64,000 bases of DNA from an uncultured Dehalococcoidia bacterium (GCA_964653005.1 CAZZAN010000001.1:237898-301897); one strand, 5' to 3'. Numbered from the stretch's first letter, positions 6,777-18,641 are shown. The notes: a model not told the origin generated them from the letters alone. Translations and numbers: made by a program.

Positions 6777-7964
6777 ATGAGCGATGCAGTAATCGTGAGC
6801 GCAGTGCGAACCGCGGTTGGGGCAATGGGTGGCGGCCTTTCGAACGTTGCGGCGCCAAAGCTGGGCGCAGTCACCATCCAGGAGGCCATCGGGCGCTCCG
6901 GGATTCCGGAGGAAATCCTGCCGGATGAGGTGTTGATGGGGAACGTAATCCAGGCCGGGCTGGGCCAGAACCCTGCCCGCCAGTCCGCCATCCAGAGCGG
7001 CCTGCCGGTGAGCGTGCCCTCCACCACCATCAACAAGGTCTGCGGCTCCGGCCTCAAGACCGTCATCCTGGCGTCACAGGCCATCCGCGCAGGCGATGCC
7101 AGCTACATCGTCGCGGGCGGCATGGAGAACATGAGCGCCGGTCCGTACCTGGTGCAGAACGGCCGCTACGGCTATCGGCTCGGCAACGCCGAGTTGGTTG
7201 ACGCGACGGTCCACGACGGGCTGTGGTGCGCGATGGAAGATTGCCATATGGGCATCACCGCGGAGAACGTGGCTGCCGAGTATGGCGTCACACGCGAGGA
7301 CCAGGACGCCTTCTCCGCAGAGTCACAGCGGCGCGCCGGTGAGGCGATGAGCAGCGGCCGTTTCGCCGATGAAATCGTCAACGTGGAGATTCCGCAGAGG
7401 CGCGGCGACCCGGTGGTCGTGAACACCGATGAGCACCCACGCCCGGACTCCACCAGCGAGACGCTGGGGCGACTCCGCCCTGCGTTCACACAGGACAACG
7501 GCACGGTGACGGCCGGCAACGCCTCCGGCATCAACGACGGAGCGGCAACGACAATCGTCGTCTCTGAGGAGTTCGCCAATGAGCACGGCCTCAAGCCGCT
7601 GGCGCGCGTTCGCGGTTATGCCGCGGCGGGCGTCGATCCGCGCATCATGGGCATCGGCCCCATCACTGCCATGCAGAAGGCCGTCCGCCACGCAGGGCTG
7701 TCCATCAGTGACATTGACCTGATCGAGTTGAACGAGGCGTTCGCCGCGCAGTCCGTTGCGGTGTCACGCGAGCTTGAGCTCGATCCGGACATCGTGAACG
7801 TCAACGGCGGCGCAATCGCCATCGGTCACCCAATCGGCGCGTCCGGCACGCGCATTCTCGTCACCCTGCTCCATGAGATGCAGAAGCGAGAGACGCAGTT
7901 CGGGATGGCTTCCTTGTGCATCGGCGGCGGACAGGGCATCGCCCTGGTCGTTGAGGCCGTATAG
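6777..7964 (+). CDS. Acetyl-CoA C-acetyltransferase (thiolase II, PhaA/AtoB-like)
   Basis: 395 aa. Thiolase motifs: [34 protein letters not shown]. Confidence 0.9.
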
Positions 7965-8725: not shown

Positions 8726-10369
<1,644 letters not shown>

Positions 10370-10394
10370 GCCGACTCAACTGATTCGAGACCGC

Positions 10395-10437
10395 AAGTCC
10401 CCCGCTCACCGTGCGGTGAGCGGGGGACTTCTTTTTT
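10395..10437 (+). terminator. Rho-independent terminator of the groESL operon
   Basis: aagtcccccgctcacc-gtgc-ggtgagcgggggactt forms a 16-bp perfect stem, followed by cTTTTTTg. Confidence 0.75.
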
Positions 10438-10492
10438 GCAGAGATTGGTTGTTTGGCCAAACCGCCTGTACCATCACTCAGGGGGTGAACTC

Positions 10493-11212
10493 ATGGGACA
10501 ACTTGATGGCAAGGTCTGCATCATAACCGGAGGGGGCAGGGGCATCGGAAAAGGGATTGCGCGCGCATTCGCCAAGGAAGGCGCGACGCTCGTCCTGGCT
10601 TCGCGGCAACTTGACACTCTCAATGAGACAGCCGAGGAGATGCGGGGCTATGGATCGCCAACCCTCGTGGTCCAGACGGATGTGACCAGCGAGGAGCAGA
10701 TCAAGAGCCTCTTTGAGACGACAATGGCGGAACACGGGCGAGTGGACATCCTGGTGAATAATTCCGGCGTGTTCGACGGCGGCCCCGTCGATGAACTCCC
10801 GTTGGAAACGTGGAATAAGGTCATCGCCATCAACCTCACCGCGGCTTTCATCTGCACGAGAGAGGCCATGAAGATCATGAAGCCGCAGGGCGGCGGACGG
10901 ATCATCAACATCGGCAGCATCTCGTCGAGTATCCCCAGGATGAACTCGGCCGCCTACGCAACCTCCAAGCACGGAATCATCGGCCTCACGAAGTCGACCG
11001 CGCTTGAGGGCAGGGACTTCGGCATCTCAGCGGGCGCGCTACACCCGGGAAGCGTCACCCTGGAGTGGCGCGGGCCTGAGGATCCGAACGCAACGATGTC
11101 GGTGGACGACATCGCCATCGGAGCATTGGCAATGGCGACGATGCCAGAGTATGCGACGATGCTTGACGCGACGGTTCTGCCCATCAGGCAGCCATTCCTG
11201 GGACGGGGGTAA
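10493..11212 (+). CDS. SDR-family oxidoreductase
   Basis: About 239 aa from ATG 10493 with a GGGGGTG RBS; the track's TTG start at 10436 lies inside the groEL terminator. ITGGGRGIGKG and YATSKHG motifs. Its last about 25 codons are duplicated at 14354-14430. Confidence 0.8.
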   Translation: MGQLDGKVCIITGGGRGIGKGIARAFAKEGATLVLASRQLDTLNETAEEMRGYGSPTLVVQTDVTSEEQIKSLFETTMAEHGRVDILVNNSGVFDGGPVDELPLETWNKVIAINLTAAFICTREAMKIMKPQGGGRIINIGSISSSIPRMNSAAYATSKHGIIGLTKSTALEGRDFGISAGALHPGSVTLEWRGPEDPNATMSVDDIAIGALAMATMPEYATMLDATVLPIRQPFLGRG

Positions 11213-11217
11213 CCCGG
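11141..11217 (+). repeat. Direct repeat, left copy (SDR 3' end, MPEYATMLDATVLPIRQPFLGRG*)
   Basis: 77 bp, with about 8 mismatches to 14354-14430. All mismatches fall at third codon positions and both copies encode the identical peptide. Confidence 0.85.
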
Positions 11218-11298
11218 CAGCCCCCCGAAGGCGGGGCGACCGTATACTAAAGTACTGACAGTAAGTCGAAGGGATCTGGTTCGGCATCGGAGGGGGAT

Positions 11299-12597
11299 AT
11301 GACAGCGGCCAAGCGGCCGAGGGTGGGTGCTATAGGATTGAGTTCCTCACAGCTGGATTCCATCAGGCCACTTTGCGGAATGCTTAGGCCAGCCGACTCA
11401 TTGGGCGATTATTGCGAGCTCTACAGTTGGACAGAAACGGACATCTTGGTAGCGTGTAATTTCGATTCTTGGGAGGATGAACCTTCCCCTCTTACCATCG
11501 ATCCTGATGTCAATATACTCGCCTTTAGTGAGTTTTATATCACATGGCCGGATAAGTACTCTACGAACAATTATGCTAACAATCACTACGCATCTACTAG
11601 CAGGAACACTGAGCGTGAACTGTCGGTTGCAGACGCTTGTCCGGATGTATATGAGCCACTTGCTGTTGATTTGATCAAGGAGTTAGCAAGAACTCAAAGC
11701 CTTCCTACAGTGATCGACACTTCCAGAAAGCGTTTTACATCGCTGGTTTCAACTACTTCAAACCAGCCTGTAGCCTTGTACATCGATTTGCCACCTCGAG
11801 CGGAGGGGCCTGACAGAGAACCAGTTCGAGCGTTCGCGCTCCTGCTCCCCAACGTTTCTAATCTCGCGGCCTGGTTCCGAGCCTTCCTTGCGGAGATTCA
11901 CGAAAGGAATCCTAGCCGGGTTCCACATGCCCCGCCTCGTTTGAGCAATCCATCAGATTGGTACACGCCTGAAGAAAGGGACCTAGCAGACCAAATCTCG
12001 GAAGTCAGCACGGAAATCACAGCCTTAACGGACAATCGTGACCGGCTTGAGGAACAACTGGCCATAAAGACGACAGAGGCCGACGCGGAGATTCGGAGCG
12101 CGCTCTGGGCCGACGGAGACGAACTGACCGCATCGGTCAAGGAGATTCTCTCCGGCCTAGGCTTTGTAGTCCGGGACATGGATACCGAATTGGATGAGGG
12201 GCAGCCTAAGCGCGAAGACTTGCGCCTGACACTTCCGGACAACTCTGCCTGGGAAGCCATTGTGGAAGTGAAGGGATATTCAGGCGGCACTAAGACGAGC
12301 GATGCCCGCCAAATTAGGGAGCACCGCGACCACTACACAGAGGAGAAAGGCCAGAAGCCTCATTTGACGTTGTGGCTGGCCAACGCACATCGCAACTATG
12401 CCCCTTCTGATAGACCTGCGCCGGATGGAAACGTCAAGGTGACCGCTGAGGTAGCCGGCATCGTTCACGCGCAAGTGCACGACCTACTTCGACAATGGTT
12501 GCTTGTTCAGGCGGGCAGTCTTGACGCAGCAATTGTCGTGAAAAGTCTGGTCGATGCCGAACCCGGACTCTGGACCCCACCAAAGCCTCCCGACTAG
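11299..12597 (+). CDS. Uncharacterised protein: unknown N-terminal domain, central coiled coil, C-terminal PD-x(n)-E-x-K nuclease-like motif
   Basis: 432 aa with a GGAGGGGG RBS. Shows a coiled-coil-like stretch (ERDLADQISEVSTEITALTDNRDRLEEQLAIKTTEADAEIRS), then LRLTLPDNSAWEAIVEVKGYSGGTK (PD...EVK). The gene is AT-shifted. Confidence 0.6.
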   Translation: MTAAKRPRVGAIGLSSSQLDSIRPLCGMLRPADSLGDYCELYSWTETDILVACNFDSWEDEPSPLTIDPDVNILAFSEFYITWPDKYSTNNYANNHYASTSRNTERELSVADACPDVYEPLAVDLIKELARTQSLPTVIDTSRKRFTSLVSTTSNQPVALYIDLPPRAEGPDREPVRAFALLLPNVSNLAAWFRAFLAEIHERNPSRVPHAPPRLSNPSDWYTPEERDLADQISEVSTEITALTDNRDRLEEQLAIKTTEADAEIRSALWADGDELTASVKEILSGLGFVVRDMDTELDEGQPKREDLRLTLPDNSAWEAIVEVKGYSGGTKTSDARQIREHRDHYTEEKGQKPHLTLWLANAHRNYAPSDRPAPDGNVKVTAEVAGIVHAQVHDLLRQWLLVQAGSLDAAIVVKSLVDAEPGLWTPPKPPD

Positions 12598-12818
12598 ACA
12601 TAGCGAGCCGCCTGATAAAGTATCGTGATGGGACAGAGAAGTCGGAGGCTTTTCCCAGTAGTGACGAACATGGCACCGGTCGCGTCCGCGAAAGTCGGGG
12701 CGCGAAAGCATCTATCCCAACGAGGTCGGCTCCGACGCAGGCACGAGCGATAAACACTCACATAACGCCGCCCGTGAAAACGACTAAACCTACTCCTGCT
12801 GACGGGGGATAACATCTT

Positions 12819-14303
12819 ATGAAGAGGGCGCTGTGGATAATCCTGATCCTTATTTTGACGCTGGTTGGTCTATGCACCGCGCTGACCGTTGCCTTACCTG
12901 TCCCTGAAGAATCGAATTCGACCGCAGAGCCATCTGAACAGACTCCTCGCGTAGCTGCACAAGTCCTTCATGCAGGACGAGCGGTTAACATGGAGGACTT
13001 TGGCCCGGGCCGCAAATATCCAAGTATCCAGATTTACGGCGAGGTCTGTGATGTAAACGAGTCGAACGCGCCTGAGTACGTGGAAGTATCCTTGTATGGA
13101 ATCATAAAGAGTCGCTACTCAGATTGGTGCATCAAATCAGTGACTTTAGGTGGGGCTTCAGAACTGAGTTCGGGGCTCGAGAAGGGCGATGCATTCGAAG
13201 CAATCTGTACTGGCACGATTTCAGAAGTCTCGGTTCATTTGCTGGTCAGGGAATGCAGTGCATTACCCGAGACAGGCAGACGTGATTCACCCGCACGAGC
13301 GCCAGCCGTGCCGATTTCGTCATCAAGGCTGGCCGATGCGGATTCAACAGAATATCTAAACCCTGAGCGGGTGGTAGAAGAGGTACGGGATACCGTCGTG
13401 CATATAAAGTCTGATTTTGGTAACTGGCCCGGTGTCATTTATGCTACAGAGGGTGTATCCGCGTTCATAGTCACAAATGCTCGCGCTGTTCTACAAGATA
13501 GCCAACTGTACGACACCGTCGAAGTTATGACCTATGACGGCACGTCTTATGGTGGTGCATTAATGATCTGGGATCAGGGCACTGACATTGCCATTATCGG
13601 TATCTGCTGTGGAGAGTTCGAGCCACTTGTATTTGGTGATGCATCCACGCTCGAGATTGGAAGAGAGGTCATCGCCGTTGGTCATCAGGGTCTCACGGAC
13701 ACATCGCTGAAATCGGTGCAGGGTGCAGTTACAGCACATGCCTTGGTGAGCGATGGCACCATCAATGTAATCCGCACTGATGCAATTGTAATTCCACAAA
13801 ATGATGGTGGGCTACTAATATCCCCGTTTGGCAAATTTCTCGGCATCAATACACCGGCGCTTTTCCCTTCGGAGGGCCTAGGATTTGCCGTCACAGAGAA
13901 GGCCATAAGAGAGTTCATCGACGGGTTCAGAACGGGCAATATACGTGTCCCACCCCCATCACCTACGTCTACAGCAACTCCCTTGATTGATGTCTGGGAC
14001 CTTTATGGCGAACATAGCGCCAATGCGATGAGGTTCGAGCGAGATCGAGCAGGAAAACGTGCCCAAATATATGGCCTCGTCTGCAGAATCGACGATAGTG
14101 CTCTTTATTTGTACGCGGATTCAGACAGCCTTCTTGTCGAATCTTGCGCTCATAGGGCGGTTGTCGTAGTTGGTTTAGCCGAAAACTTGTTACTGGAGTT
14201 ATCAGCCGGGGATACGTTTGTGGCGACTTGCCACGTGGCTGGATTTATAGATCAATCTGGTCTGCTTACAGACCATATGTATGTGGCGGGCTGCACCTCC
14301 TAG
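12819..14303 (+). CDS. Membrane-anchored trypsin-fold (HtrA/S1-like) protein whose catalytic His and Ser appear substituted (probable pseudo-protease), flanked by two homologous small domains
   Basis: 494 aa with an N-terminal TM (MKRALWIILILILTLVGLCTALTVAL). S1 motifs are present but altered: TNARAV where TN(A/N)HVV is expected, DIAIIGI, GREVIAVGHQG, IRTDAIVIPQNDGGLL where GNSGGPL is expected, GKFLGINT, GLGFAV. An N-terminal segment (QIYGEVCDVNES...GDAFEAICTG...HLLVRECS) and a C-terminal segment (QIYGLVCRIDDS...GDTFVATCHV...HMYVAGCTS) are visibly related to each other. Confidence 0.6.
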   Translation: MKRALWIILILILTLVGLCTALTVALPVPEESNSTAEPSEQTPRVAAQVLHAGRAVNMEDFGPGRKYPSIQIYGEVCDVNESNAPEYVEVSLYGIIKSRYSDWCIKSVTLGGASELSSGLEKGDAFEAICTGTISEVSVHLLVRECSALPETGRRDSPARAPAVPISSSRLADADSTEYLNPERVVEEVRDTVVHIKSDFGNWPGVIYATEGVSAFIVTNARAVLQDSQLYDTVEVMTYDGTSYGGALMIWDQGTDIAIIGICCGEFEPLVFGDASTLEIGREVIAVGHQGLTDTSLKSVQGAVTAHALVSDGTINVIRTDAIVIPQNDGGLLISPFGKFLGINTPALFPSEGLGFAVTEKAIREFIDGFRTGNIRVPPPSPTSTATPLIDVWDLYGEHSANAMRFERDRAGKRAQIYGLVCRIDDSALYLYADSDSLLVESCAHRAVVVVGLAENLLLELSAGDTFVATCHVAGFIDQSGLLTDHMYVAGCTS

Positions 14304-14353
14304 ACGATACTTTCAGCCTGGACGATGTATGGCGCTGAGATTCTAGGGCTGTG

Positions 14354-14430
14354 ATGCCGGAGTACGCCACCATGCTTGATGCGACGGTTCTGCCCATCAG
14401 GCAGCCGTTCCTGGGGCGCGGTTAACCCGG
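14354..14430 (+). repeat. Direct repeat, right copy (orphan SDR 3' end)
   Basis: It encodes the same 23-aa peptide plus stop as 11141-11217, with synonymous-only differences. It is not attached to any upstream reading frame. Confidence 0.85.
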
Positions 14431-14432
14431 GG

Positions 14433-15455
14433 TCACGCCGTCATTCTGAGGCTTGGGACGGCGTCAAGTCCTCCGTCATCGGGCTGAGCGCCGTGTTCAA
14501 TGACGAACGCGGCGCGGGCGGCGATCATGACACCGTTGTCCGTGCAGAGTCCGGGGCGAGGCCGCCATACGGGCATGTCCGCCTTGCGCAGGACCTCCTC
14601 GCCGAGGGCGCTGTTTGCCGCGACGCCGCCGGACAACATGACCGACTTCGCTTTCGTAGCACGCGCGACCTCCAACAGGCGGTCCGCCAGGCCCGTGACA
14701 GCGGTCTGCTGAAAGCCTGCGGCGATATTGGCGACGTCTTCCTGGGTCAGCGCGTCCGTCCCGCCTCGTTCGTTCACCACGCGGAGCACTGCCGTCTTGA
14801 GGCCGCTGAAACTGAAATCCCATGAGTCCCTGATCAGCGGGCTGGGAAAGCGGACAGGGTCGGTCGCCTCACGAGCGACGCGTTCGATGATCGGGCCACC
14901 CGGGTAGCCGAGGCCAAGCAGCCGCGCCACCTTGTCGAACGCCTCACCCGCGGCATCGTCTCTCGTCTCGCTCAGCAGCCGGTAGTTCCCGTGCTCCTCC
15001 ACCCGCACGATGTCCGTATGGCCGCCGGAGACGATGAGCGCCACGGATGGCAGCAGCGGGTCGCCCCGCTCCTCACTGTCCCACTGCCCGTCCACGATCC
15101 AGTTCGCATAGACGTGTCCCTCAAGATGGTGAACACCGTACAGCGGCAGGTCCCACGCCATCGCGAGCGCCTTGGCGAAATTGACACCCACCAATAGGGA
15201 GCCTGCCAGTCCCGGGCCGTACGTCACGGCGATGGCGTCGAGATTGAGGTCTCCGTCATGTCGCTCCATGACGTCACGCAGGAGCGTGGGAAACGTCAGC
15301 AGGTGTTGGCGTGACGCGATCTCCGGAACCACACCGCCGAATCGCGCATGGATATCCGCCTGCGATGACAGGCCATGGACGATGACCCGACGCCCGTCCT
15401 CAACGATGGCGATGCCCGTCTCATCGCAAGATGATTCGATACCAAGAATTCTCAT
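14433..15455 (-). CDS. tsaD: tRNA N6-adenosine threonylcarbamoyltransferase TsaD (Kae1/Gcp)
   Basis: 340 aa. MRILGIESSCDETGIAIV...HHLEGH... Confidence 0.9.
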   Translation of the reverse strand: MRILGIESSCDETGIAIVEDGRRVIVHGLSSQADIHARFGGVVPEIASRQHLLTFPTLLRDVMERHDGDLNLDAIAVTYGPGLAGSLLVGVNFAKALAMAWDLPLYGVHHLEGHVYANWIVDGQWDSEERGDPLLPSVALIVSGGHTDIVRVEEHGNYRLLSETRDDAAGEAFDKVARLLGLGYPGGPIIERVAREATDPVRFPSPLIRDSWDFSFSGLKTAVLRVVNERGGTDALTQEDVANIAAGFQQTAVTGLADRLLEVARATKAKSVMLSGGVAANSALGEEVLRKADMPVWRPRPGLCTDNGVMIAARAAFVIEHGAQPDDGGLDAVPSLRMTA

Positions 15456-15495
15456 TGTGGCGCGGCTGTGAGCGTTCGGAGTGAGCCCATGTGGC

Positions 15496-16137
15496 TCAGG
15501 CCGCAGTGAGTTGCAGCATCAACATGGCGAATTCACTCTCCTGCGCCGCCATGCGGTAGAGCGAACGCATTGCAGGATCAATGCCGGACTTGATAATTGT
15601 CGGTATGTGGTCTTCTTCAATGACTTCCGGCATCTGCGACCAGCCAATCACGATGGTATCGCCGTCACCAATCTGCTCGTTTGCCACATAGATGGGCACT
15701 TCACCATCTTCTCCGAGCGCGCCGCCCGGGTCACCCGGCGTCACATAGCCCGGATAATAGATCTGCTCACCGGTAACAACCCAGGAGACTGCCGGTCCGG
15801 CCCAGGCAAGGTAGACCTCATTCCCGGTGAGCGCGGCCAATACTGCGCTTGCGCGCCAACCGCGTACCGAGTATTCGCTGAGGGTTGATTGCGCAGACTC
15901 GATCGCGTTCTGCAGGTAGCGTGTCGTCGTCAGTCGTCGCTGCGCATTAAGGCCTCCCTCAAGCGCCTCCCACACGATGTCCGAGACTGTTGTCGCGGGC
16001 CCTGAGACAACCTCAACCAGCCCGAAAACGGCCTCGATATCATCTAGTCGCCTGTCATCCCACACACGGATATAGGGCGCCATCGGCTGCGCCTCGCCGC
16101 CCGAAATGCTGAAACTTGCCGTCGTGTATGTTGCCAT
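15496..16137 (-). CDS. Hypothetical protein, possibly a PP2C/SpoIIE-like fold; immediately upstream of tsaD
   Basis: 213 aa ORF lying 40 nt upstream of tsaD on the same strand. Only weak PPM-like patterns are visible (AGPAVSWVV, GDGDTIVIGW). Confidence 0.45.
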   Translation of the reverse strand: MATYTTASFSISGGEAQPMAPYIRVWDDRRLDDIEAVFGLVEVVSGPATTVSDIVWEALEGGLNAQRRLTTTRYLQNAIESAQSTLSEYSVRGWRASAVLAALTGNEVYLAWAGPAVSWVVTGEQIYYPGYVTPGDPGGALGEDGEVPIYVANEQIGDGDTIVIGWSQMPEVIEEDHIPTIIKSGIDPAMRSLYRMAAQESEFAMLMLQLTAA

Positions 16138-17582: not shown

Positions 17583-18641
17583 GTGGAAGACATCAAGCTA
17601 TGGGAACTAGCCGTAACTGAGGCCAAGCCTTTGGGTTCGAATAAGAAGTGGGAGTCCGAGAAGTCATTTGAAGATACTCTCGTCGAGAACCCGGAACTGC
17701 TGCTCGACGGCCTGACACTGGTGGGGCGGCAGACTCCAACCGAAGGCGGACGAGCGCTTGATCTGCTAGGTGTAGATTCGTACGGCAAGCTGGTCGTGTT
17801 CGAGTTGAAGCGCGATACGCTGTCGCGTGAGGCCGTCGCGCAAATCATCGATTACGCATCCTTTCTCGACAATCTGGATCTCAATGCCCTGGCCGAGCAC
17901 ATTTCGGAAAAGTCAGGCGCTCACGGAATTGCTAAAATCGATAACTTTCAAGAGTGGTACAGCAGCGAGGGTTTTGGCGAATTGGAGTCGTTGAAGCCGT
18001 TGCGGATGTTCCTGGTCGGTCTCGGAGCAGATGACCGCACGGAGCGCATGGTAAGGTTCCTCGCCCAGAACAGCGGGATGGATATCTCGATGCTGACCTT
18101 TCACGCGTTCGACTACGACGGCAAGACTATCCTTGCCAAGCAAGTGGAGGTGGAAGCAGACGCCGAACCCGAGCGGCGCTCCACAAGGCGACGTCCGTCT
18201 CAGGAGGAGTTCAACCAGCGTTTCGATGAGAAAAGGGCAGACTTTGGAGTCGGTAATCTCATCGATGACGTTCGCCGCATGTTCAGAGAGAATTGGCCAT
18301 CATCGACAGAACGCGCAGACACCTGGGGCATCAATTTCCAACTTCAGCCAAATCGTAGGCGCTATGCACGCTATGCGCGCATTGATCCCTGGCGAAAGGA
18401 AACAATAAGCATCGTATTCTTTGACCGCGCCAAGACATTGTGCCCGGATGAGTTCAGAGGACCCTTAGAGAAGATTAGCTATGTAACGTATCCGCGAAAT
18501 CGCGACCCGCTGGGAGACCCTAAGGCAGAGATTCAGTTCCACCTGACCCCGCAGGAGTGGGAAACCCACAAAGAGAGCTTGACCGCTCTCGCGCAAGCCG
18601 TCTACGCAGCATGGCAGAATAATGGGGCGGAATCGGACTAA
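17583..18641 (+). CDS. NucS/DUF91-like PD-(D/E)xK nuclease-domain protein
   Basis: About 352 aa from GTG 17583, with a GGAGGG RBS 5 nt upstream. LVGRQTPTEGGRALDLLGVDSYGKLVVFELKR matches the NucS-C/DUF91 core (GR..DLL..D..G.LVV.ELKR). GC is moderately below the neighbours. The track's start at 17400 overlaps corC. Confidence 0.6.
   Translation: MEDIKLWELAVTEAKPLGSNKKWESEKSFEDTLVENPELLLDGLTLVGRQTPTEGGRALDLLGVDSYGKLVVFELKRDTLSREAVAQIIDYASFLDNLDLNALAEHISEKSGAHGIAKIDNFQEWYSSEGFGELESLKPLRMFLVGLGADDRTERMVRFLAQNSGMDISMLTFHAFDYDGKTILAKQVEVEADAEPERRSTRRRPSQEEFNQRFDEKRADFGVGNLIDDVRRMFRENWPSSTERADTWGINFQLQPNRRRYARYARIDPWRKETISIVFFDRAKTLCPDEFRGPLEKISYVTYPRNRDPLGDPKAEIQFHLTPQEWETHKESLTALAQAVYAAWQNNGAESD

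Follow-up and report, generated by a model that had tools for sequence, protein, structure and literature searches.

The SDR-tsaD junction and its insert

The subject of this work is a window of 64,000 nucleotides (the whole stretch of DNA that was analyzed; GCA_964653005.1 CAZZAN010000001.1:237898-301897) from an uncultured, apparently sponge-associated Dehalococcoidia bacterium, in which an islet of about 3.2 kb, bounded by direct repeats and carrying two open-reading frames (ORF1 and ORF2), separates a short-chain dehydrogenase gene (SDR) from its convergent right-hand neighbor, tsaD. The SDR gene (10493..11212, +; Pfam adh_short, 5.9e-54) is the target of the insertion, and its last 72 nt together with 5 nt past the stop codon fall within the first repeat copy (copy 1; 11140..11217, +), an attL-like copy that forms the functional 3′ end of the gene. 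The leader of the ORF1 module (11218..11298, +), whose left edge forms a GC-rich hairpin (about 11215-11242), precedes ORF1 (11299..12597, +; 432 aa). A spacer of 221 nt (12598..12818) lies between ORF1 and ORF2 (12819..14303, +; 494 aa; Pfam Trypsin_2, 1.3e-10), and the right end of the insert, the 49 nt from the ORF2 stop to the second repeat (14304..14352), has no similarity to any relative. The second repeat (copy 2; 14353..14430, +) is attR-like, does not code, and represents what is left of an SDR 3′ end; it is followed by tsaD (14433..15455, −; Pfam TsaD, 3.2e-82). The genes between the repeats are AT-shifted relative to their flanks, as an earlier note on this DNA had remarked: GC is 0.54 in ORF1 and 0.51 in ORF2 and third-position GC (GC3) is 0.56 and 0.49, compared to 0.61-0.65 and 0.77-0.82, respectively, in groEL, SDR, and tsaD. 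There is no tRNA in the whole window and no match to an Rfam family within 10300-15600, and a scan for promoters and terminators returned no more than shuffled sequence did.

The direct repeat (11140-11217 and 14353-14430, spaced 3213 nt from start to start) is 78 nt long with 88% identity between the copies. The earlier note had given 77 bp and about eight differences, all at third codon positions; the repeat is one base longer on the left and the copies differ at nine sites, but the pattern stands, as each difference affects the third position of a codon in the SDR frame, leaving MPEYATMLDATVLPIRQPFLGRG* as the translation of both. The probability that nine random differences would all land on the 24 third positions among 72 coding bases is 1.5e-5, indicating that each copy diverged as the end of a working gene. 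Copy 2 lies outside any longer ORF and is preceded by an in-frame TGA (14336-14338) five codons upstream, so it is no longer a working gene end. The longest run identical in both copies is a block of 26 nt (11168-11193 = 14381-14406; on copy 1, 11168..11193, +), which we refer to as the core and regard as the most likely crossover segment.

The junctions were also compared with Logan contigs. The left junction, from SDR into ORF1, is identical in contigs of SRR8304769, -770, -783, -785, and -786, and the right junction, from the end of ORF2 through copy 2 into tsaD, is 100% identical in contigs of SRR8304769, -770, -772, and -785. An assembly artefact or a local duplication is ruled out by these identical junctions across independent runs, taken together with the synonymous-only differences between the copies.

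Empty and occupied sites in related genomes

Orthologous loci were collected via SDR homologues, using the synteny groES-groEL-SDR / tsaD-213aa-CNNM, and the SDR orthologues in groES-groEL-SDR-tsaD synteny are 82-98% identical at the amino acid level. In eight relatives (L043, L044, L046, L047, L048, L049, L056, and L057) the site is empty, with only 3-18 nt between the SDR stop and the convergent tsaD stop, indicating that the islet is a true insertion; such an empty site, with SDR followed directly by tsaD, was what the earlier note had suggested looking for. In the window, copy 2 sits in this empty-site arrangement (TAA CCCGGGG TCA), the 48 nt downstream of copy 2 match the empty-site locus L043 at 42 positions, and the right-flank alignments of all relatives resume at 14347.

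Two further relatives fill the same gap differently, which makes the SDR-tsaD junction a recurrent insertion point. The gap is occupied by four small ORFs in 1.5 kb in L045 and by 5.7 kb in L004, a locus on the same contig as L005 in a Dehalococcoidia metagenome-assembled genome (MAG), where the insert holds a homologue of ORF1 (72% aa), a seemingly membrane-associated protein of 299 aa, a 502-aa secreted leucine-rich-repeat (LRR) protein, and a 122+99-aa gene pair. No second copy of the SDR end was found in the L004 or L045 inserts and, compared to these two, only the window has a duplicated gene end at the junction. The L004 insert is bounded by a 65-nt inverted repeat (7879-7942 and 13062-13121, 78% identity) that includes the GC-rich hairpin preceding ORF1 and could be a repetitive extragenic palindrome (REP)-like or miniature inverted-repeat transposable element (MITE)-like element; its right copy overlaps and extends the tsaD frame, which ends in RMTMARDTALSF as opposed to RMTA in the window.

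The cargo at this site includes two further items. The secreted 502-aa LRR protein of L004 (10621-12129, −) has a Pro/Thr-rich linker, and we take it to be a eukaryote-like protein of a kind often reported in sponge symbionts. The pair of genes of ~122 aa and ~99 aa is found at L004 12382-13050, L045 10503-11162, and L049 7923-8583, is 54-88% identical between genomes, and has no Pfam or NCBIfam match. It adjoins the tsaD end in L004 and L045 and lies between groEL and SDR in L049, and it gives the impression of a small mobile cassette, perhaps akin to a toxin-antitoxin module, that hops among the intergenic sites of this neighborhood.

Allele pattern of the repeats

The closest relative with an empty site is L056 (SDR 98% aa; left flank 96.1% nt; right flank 93.4% nt). 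Five of the variable sites lie left of the core, and there copy 1 has the L056 allele five times out of five and copy 2 not once (Fisher p=0.008); copy 2 matches L057 at one of the five. The left 27 nt of copy 2 carry five mismatches to L056 where the flank baseline is 6.4% (p=0.03), and four to L057. Copy 1 has no mismatch to L056 in 11141-11193 and then three in its last 19 coding nt (p=0.06); its alleles 11194 A and 11206 G are absent from the empty-site relatives compared, and, like the ORF1-bearing L004, it has G at repeat sites 66 and 69. The right part of copy 2 continues directly into the native tsaD flank. Judged by these alleles, copy 1 looks native left of the core and copy 2 looks foreign there. 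The earlier note had described an attL/attR-like arrangement in which the in-gene copy was a replacement end brought in by the element from a different lineage. The two copies do behave as alleles of different lineages that diverged under coding constraint, but the in-gene copy agrees with L056 at all five sites left of the core, so reciprocal chimeras are likelier. The MPEYATML ('E') allele common to both copies is frequent in the clade, and suitable donors of an SDR end therefore exist.

We consider it probable that the islet is a 3.2-kb integrase-less element, comparable to a cis-mobilizable element (CIME), that arrived through a reciprocal crossover and carries independent cargo, with ORF1 as a candidate stand-alone defense nuclease. 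A circular incoming DNA would have carried its own ~78-nt copy of the SDR 3′ end, derived from another lineage of the clade, and this copy would have recombined reciprocally with the chromosomal SDR end, likeliest within the 26-nt core, in a Campbell-type integration. The attL-like product would consist of the native left part and the element's right part and would still be a working gene end, while the attR-like product would consist of the element's left part and the native right part and would persist as a relic. The chromosome would have given the left of copy 1 and the right of copy 2, and the incoming DNA the left of copy 2, the insert, and the right of copy 1. We favor a recently captured functional gene end and recombination driven by homology through host functions, because the left of copy 2 differs at synonymous sites only and no integrase was seen; the main alternative agent would be an integrase acting in trans or one that has since been lost.

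The same data bear on a decayed site-specific element in the strict sense, namely an integrative and conjugative element (ICE), an integrative and mobilizable element (IME), or a prophage whose tyrosine or serine integrase targeted the SDR 3′ end and was later lost, or, in a variant, an islet mobilized by an integrase whose gene lies at another genomic site, with the 78-nt repeats as true att sites. A native left part on one copy and a foreign left part on the other would fit a crossover inside such a repeat, and a distant ORF1 homologue rides an integrase-bearing element in Pseudonocardia, as described below. Yet neither islet protein has an integrase or transposase domain by Pfam, in agreement with the earlier note, which had listed integrase, transposase, and tRNA as missing; genes for an integrase, relaxase, coupling protein, or VirB4 were likewise not found in the element, one of the two ORFs matching Trypsin_2 and the other nothing significant. 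The SDR-tsaD site showed no integrase in the window or in the relatives examined, including the L004 and L045 cargo that represents two other occupied states, and these relatives, a sampling far from exhaustive, contained no ICE or IME with an integrase at the SDR 3′ end. The exact core has no match in IMG/VR or in JGI contigs, and a degenerate SDR-end pattern found none in JGI metagenomes. The insert is just 3.2 kb, its boundaries are tight, and no pseudogene remnants were noticed. Furthermore, attP sequence to the left of a fixed crossover never becomes coding, yet its five differences are all synonymous, so a recently captured functional gene end or variable crossover points fit better. A decayed element of this kind, or an integrase acting in trans, is in our estimate a serious rival, though rather an unlikely one.

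Homology-facilitated illegitimate recombination would need neither a circular form nor a recombinase. A linear donor carrying SDR, ORF1, and ORF2 would have joined by homology on the left and illegitimately on the right, at SDR codon 217, in which case all of copy 1 should come from the donor and all of copy 2 should be native. Donors of this type exist, in that ORF1 lies directly downstream of SDR in L004, and the affinities of the flanks differ on the two sides of the islet. The left of copy 2, expected to be native, is nevertheless the most divergent piece when compared to both closest relatives (5/27 and 4/27), and the left of copy 1 is identical to L056, which makes this route quite improbable. 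Flank ancestry was also tried as a way of finding a donor tract and was not decisive: strain mosaicism was seen, the left flank is more conserved than the right in every relative, and the mismatches to L056 are spread evenly along SDR.

Several observations weigh against a reciprocal crossover in the core. At the four variable sites right of the core, each copy agrees with L056 at two of four, and since these sites are ambiguous, the crossover may instead have taken place at the far right edge of the repeat, in which case all of copy 1 would be native and all of copy 2 foreign. The left flank is nearer to L056 and the right flank slightly nearer to L057, so that ranks swap across the islet, and this mosaicism weakens the use of any single relative as the native reference. 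An identical block of 26 nt amid 88% identity is a marginal RecA substrate. Finally, the contigs gave no sign of a circular form, an excised site, or polymorphism, since all those with the SDR or tsaD allele of the window are occupied.

As an arrangement, an islet without integrase that is flanked by att sites and lies at the 3′ end of a gene belongs to a known kind. In E. coli, the e14 prophage in icd brings a homologous gene end that keeps icd intact and leaves the relic icdC at its far end (PMC13626634). The islet resembles e14 and phage 21 in icd in its position in the 3′ end of a protein gene, in the relic at the far copy, and in the mostly synonymous differences. However, e14 measures 15 kb and is a prophage that encodes its integrase and excises upon SOS induction, whereas the islet is 3.2 kb without recombinase or phage genes (PHROGs returned no integrase, structural, or regulatory genes, and nothing for ORF1), and neither excision nor polymorphism was seen in the contigs. 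Streptococcal CIMEs span 1.2-13 kb; their att sites occupy the 3′ ends of protein genes, and genes for recombination are lacking (PMC7563491). Like those at the 3′ ends of fda, rpsI, and rpmG, the islet is small, att-flanked, and cargo-carrying and lacks recombination and transfer genes, and, of the features by which CIMEs are recognized, it has flanking repeats of which one is the SDR 3′ end, an empty site in relatives, and no integrase, relaxase, coupling protein, or VirB4. CIMEs are, however, derivatives of ICEs or IMEs and occur in tandem with them, whereas the examined relatives contained no parent element or integrase for the SDR site.

ORF1 encodes a predicted nuclease of a large family

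ORF1 consists of an N-terminal GATase1/ThuA-like domain (aa 1-205, 11299-11913), a long helix or coiled coil (aa 224-264, 11968-12090), and a FokI-like PD-(D/E)xK nuclease domain (aa 273-425, 12115-12573), in line with its earlier description as a coiled-coil PD-(D/E)xK protein. The C-terminal domain is of the FokI cleavage type and retains the catalytic residues as an invariant motif, D307 (12217-12219), E323 (12265-12267), and K325 (12271-12273). The N-terminal domain has a fold similar to GATase1/ThuA, and across 25 homologues its invariant residues are C26, G27, R30, Y38, E46, T47, D48, W83, N103, E105, R106, E107, and C114; no His is among them, so the Cys-His-Glu triad of class I glutamine amidotransferases is absent. 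A separate sequence-specific DNA-recognition domain was not found in ORF1. Pfam, PADLOC, PHROGs, and NCBIfam gave no match, and a sequence search of the PDB with the ORF1 profile gave only insignificant coiled-coil matches. Compared to FokI, type IIS enzymes, and BspD6I, ORF1 differs in having a GATase1/ThuA-like N-terminus in place of a FokI-type recognition domain, and it differs from type IIS enzymes in having no adjacent methyltransferase and no sequence match in Pfam, NCBIfam, or PADLOC. The novelty of ORF1 lies in the joining of a restriction-type nuclease domain to an architecture not described before, within a mobile family that is large and without annotation.

Far from being confined to this locus, ORF1 belongs to a large cross-phylum family. 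A word-indexed search returned 375 homologues, and the 120 listed are 48-72% identical and ~428 aa long; a profile search returned 1455 representative clusters at E<=1e-3 and 239 at E<=1e-30. Ten distant members of the family are likewise without annotation. Relatives were placed in 38 genome loci, mostly in MAGs of Dehalococcoidia, Tepidiformaceae, Acidimicrobiia (Poriferisodalis, Aldehydirespiratoraceae), Latescibacterota, and Bryobacterales, which, going by lineage and bin names, appear to be mostly sponge symbionts; distant members occur in Nocardia, Agreia, and Pseudonocardia. The GC of ORF1 is below that of its locus in most cases.

The family shows several signs of mobility. Between the window and L004, similarity is restricted to 11221-12612 (L004 7924-9317; 78.8% by BLAST), which covers the hairpin, the leader, and ORF1 and ends 15 nt past the ORF1 stop, at 12612; the remainder of the ORF1-ORF2 spacer matches neither the L004 locus nor any other part of the window. 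Since similarity covers just this segment, hairpin, leader, and gene appear to form a self-contained module. The hairpins before ORF1 in the window and L004 have folding energies of −17.8 and −16.8 kcal/mol (z about −2.2 to −2.35), and their stem sequences differ. In Pseudonocardia xishanensis (L042, 9000-19510), a complete-looking 10.4-kb pSAM2-type integrative element encodes RepSA (2.5e-150), an FtsK/SpoIIIE-like protein, and a tyrosine integrase, is bounded by 44-50-nt att repeats overlapping tRNA-Ala, and has two ORFs of low GC and a distant homologue of ORF1 at its distal end, a position indicating that the homologue is cargo there. Remote relatives labelled 'hypothetical protein' are found on Klebsiella and Streptomyces plasmids, and none were found in the phage collections INPHARED and IMG/VR.

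Imperfect direct repeats flank ORF1 in L018 (45 nt), L019 (110 nt), and L007, and the L007 repeat appears to be the terminal part of a transposase gene. Direct repeats, counted from 35 nt upward, are nevertheless common in these genomes, with 42 pairs in 750 kb, of which 8 straddle the centrally placed ORF1, so there is no evidence that flanking by repeats is a general property of ORF1.

PD-(D/E)xK homing endonucleases are known, and we considered ORF1 as a selfish homing-type nuclease that would cut ORF1-less alleles near the SDR-tsaD junction, with the repeat as a by-product of break repair. ORF1 is the sole module common to both occupied relatives that have it, with the same edge beside the SDR stop, and its distribution is sporadic and its GC low, all of which would suit homing. 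But homing yields co-conversion and not duplication, the homologues sit in unrelated contexts with no common target, and ORF1 is stably syntenic in three genomes (L013, L015, and L032). In addition, one MAG (CAXXET01) holds two diverged paralogues at different loci, L005 and L016, with 72% and 52% aa identity to the ORF1 of the window, and the direct repeats around other ORF1 copies occur at the background frequency given above. We find homing hardly credible as the origin of the islet. A milder version, in which the ORF1 nuclease would stimulate the recombination that inserts its own cassette beside conserved genes, is also among the less likely interpretations.

From its fold, mobility, and context, ORF1 is most likely a dimerizing DNA endonuclease whose N-terminal domain would sense a signal or gate the activity, and its most plausible role is that of a stand-alone, restriction-like defense or exclusion gene, most likely exchanged between co-resident sponge symbionts. 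Passages in published work describe sponge symbiont communities as enriched in defense features (PMC5099237, PMC5649159, PMC8163846). A minority of the genes neighboring ORF1 are known defense genes (SoFic, type IIG restriction-modification, DndB, PDC-S15, HEC-05, and a DRT-like protein). A more specific proposal, which we offer as possible but doubtful, is that the family is a single-gene immune nuclease exchanged across phyla in sponge microbiomes, in which a non-catalytic amidotransferase-like domain would sense a ligand, perhaps a small molecule or modified nucleic acid, and license dimerization and cleavage.

Other features of the family argue against a role in defense. The neighbors of ORF1 are mostly housekeeping genes, and the count of defense neighbors comes from an aggregated table without a formal background control. 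A cognate methyltransferase was not found beside ORF1, such families matching ~2/115 of the neighboring proteins. PADLOC-DB 2.0 had no match for ORF1 or for its ten distant relatives, as it had none for ORF2.

ORF2, an HtrA-like pseudoprotease not conserved with ORF1

ORF2 begins with a transmembrane helix (aa 2-24) and contains an HtrA-like trypsin fold (aa 193-371) that was aligned with DegP-like proteins. A Cys-containing domain occurs twice, at about aa 51-148 and about aa 386-494, flanking the protease core (internal repeat score 79, compared to 28 +/- 5 for shuffles). At the positions of the catalytic triad, ORF2 has TNARAV (R222 for His), TDIAI (D256, kept), and QNDGG (D329 for Ser), and its earlier reading as a membrane-anchored pseudo-protease is upheld by these two replacements. 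It shares the trypsin-like fold and the triad Asp with HtrA/DegP but differs from them in R222 and D329, in the two flanking Cys-containing domains, and in the PDZ domain, none being found by Pfam, where Trypsin_2 was the only match. NCBIfam HtrA-type models scored 22-68 bits, far under their cut-offs of 250-800 bits, and in PHROGs the protease-like core matched one family of unknown function and, marginally, a protease. Just 12 weak homologues were found besides ORF2 itself, and in an AF2 (AlphaFold2) model, mean predicted confidence (pLDDT) was 51, with confidence restricted to the helix and the protease core. By its sequence features, ORF2 is a predicted lineage-specific, membrane-anchored, catalytically dead HtrA-like protein, and probably an accessory protein of the envelope or of host interaction.

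The earlier note had proposed that the two genes together form a novel conflict system, and had suggested looking for the pair in other genomes. A nuclease effector paired with a membrane pseudoprotease sensor would be in keeping with two adjacent genes on the same strand, both AT-shifted and within one insert. Against it, however, ORF2 is without a close homologue while ORF1 has hundreds, and an ORF2-like neighbor is present in 0/38 ORF1 loci. At the very same site, L004 has ORF1 beside other genes, and the similarity between L004 and the window stops just past the ORF1 stop, short of a 221-nt spacer. All-against-all clustering of neighbors across the 38 loci gave no conserved partner for ORF1 of any type, the best cluster reaching 7/38. 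A two-gene system is therefore very improbable, the two cargo genes being functionally independent, and it is for ORF1 alone that a conflict function is still a candidate.

Neighboring variable spots

Other positions downstream of the islet also vary among relatives. A gene for a NucS_C-domain protein lies at 17583-18641 (+) of the window (longest ORF from 17400; match to the PADLOC candidate defense family PDC-S11, 5.6e-36), with a GC of 0.55 that is below its flanks. It is present in the window, L004, L043, L045, L046, L047, and L057, absent from L048, and replaced by other ORFs in L049, and by this varying presence it forms a second, small site of variation ~3 kb from the islet. Another variable spot downstream is the position of an N6_N4 methyltransferase-HNH fusion in L046 (16073-17461), where L043, L047, and L048 have DUF5131 and a 282/288-aa gene. 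In contrast to these spots, a 213-aa gene of the window (15496-16137, −) without a Pfam match is kept beside tsaD in all relatives.

Significance of the islet and its cargo

The islet provides a natural example of the insertion of an integrase-less cassette at the 3′ end of a protein gene in an uncultured Dehalococcoidia bacterium. With an empty site, two alternative fillings, and a record of the parental alleles in the repeat, gene flow among sponge symbionts can be traced here at base resolution. The data establish the insertion and its empty site, the chimeric repeats as far as the left side of the core is concerned, the fold and invariant motif of ORF1, its lack of a conserved partner, and the dead triad of ORF2; we infer the circular intermediate, the enzyme responsible, the nuclease activity, and the role in defense. 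The finding opens no long-standing question, and the cargo counts for more than the arrangement, as ORF1 defines a large unannotated nuclease family in at least four phyla of sponge-associated bacteria, which is also found on an actinomycete integrative element and on plasmids. Should ORF1 prove to act in defense, the known systems would gain one that consists of a single gene and has an unusual sensor domain; otherwise, ORF1 would still represent a widespread mobile nuclease.

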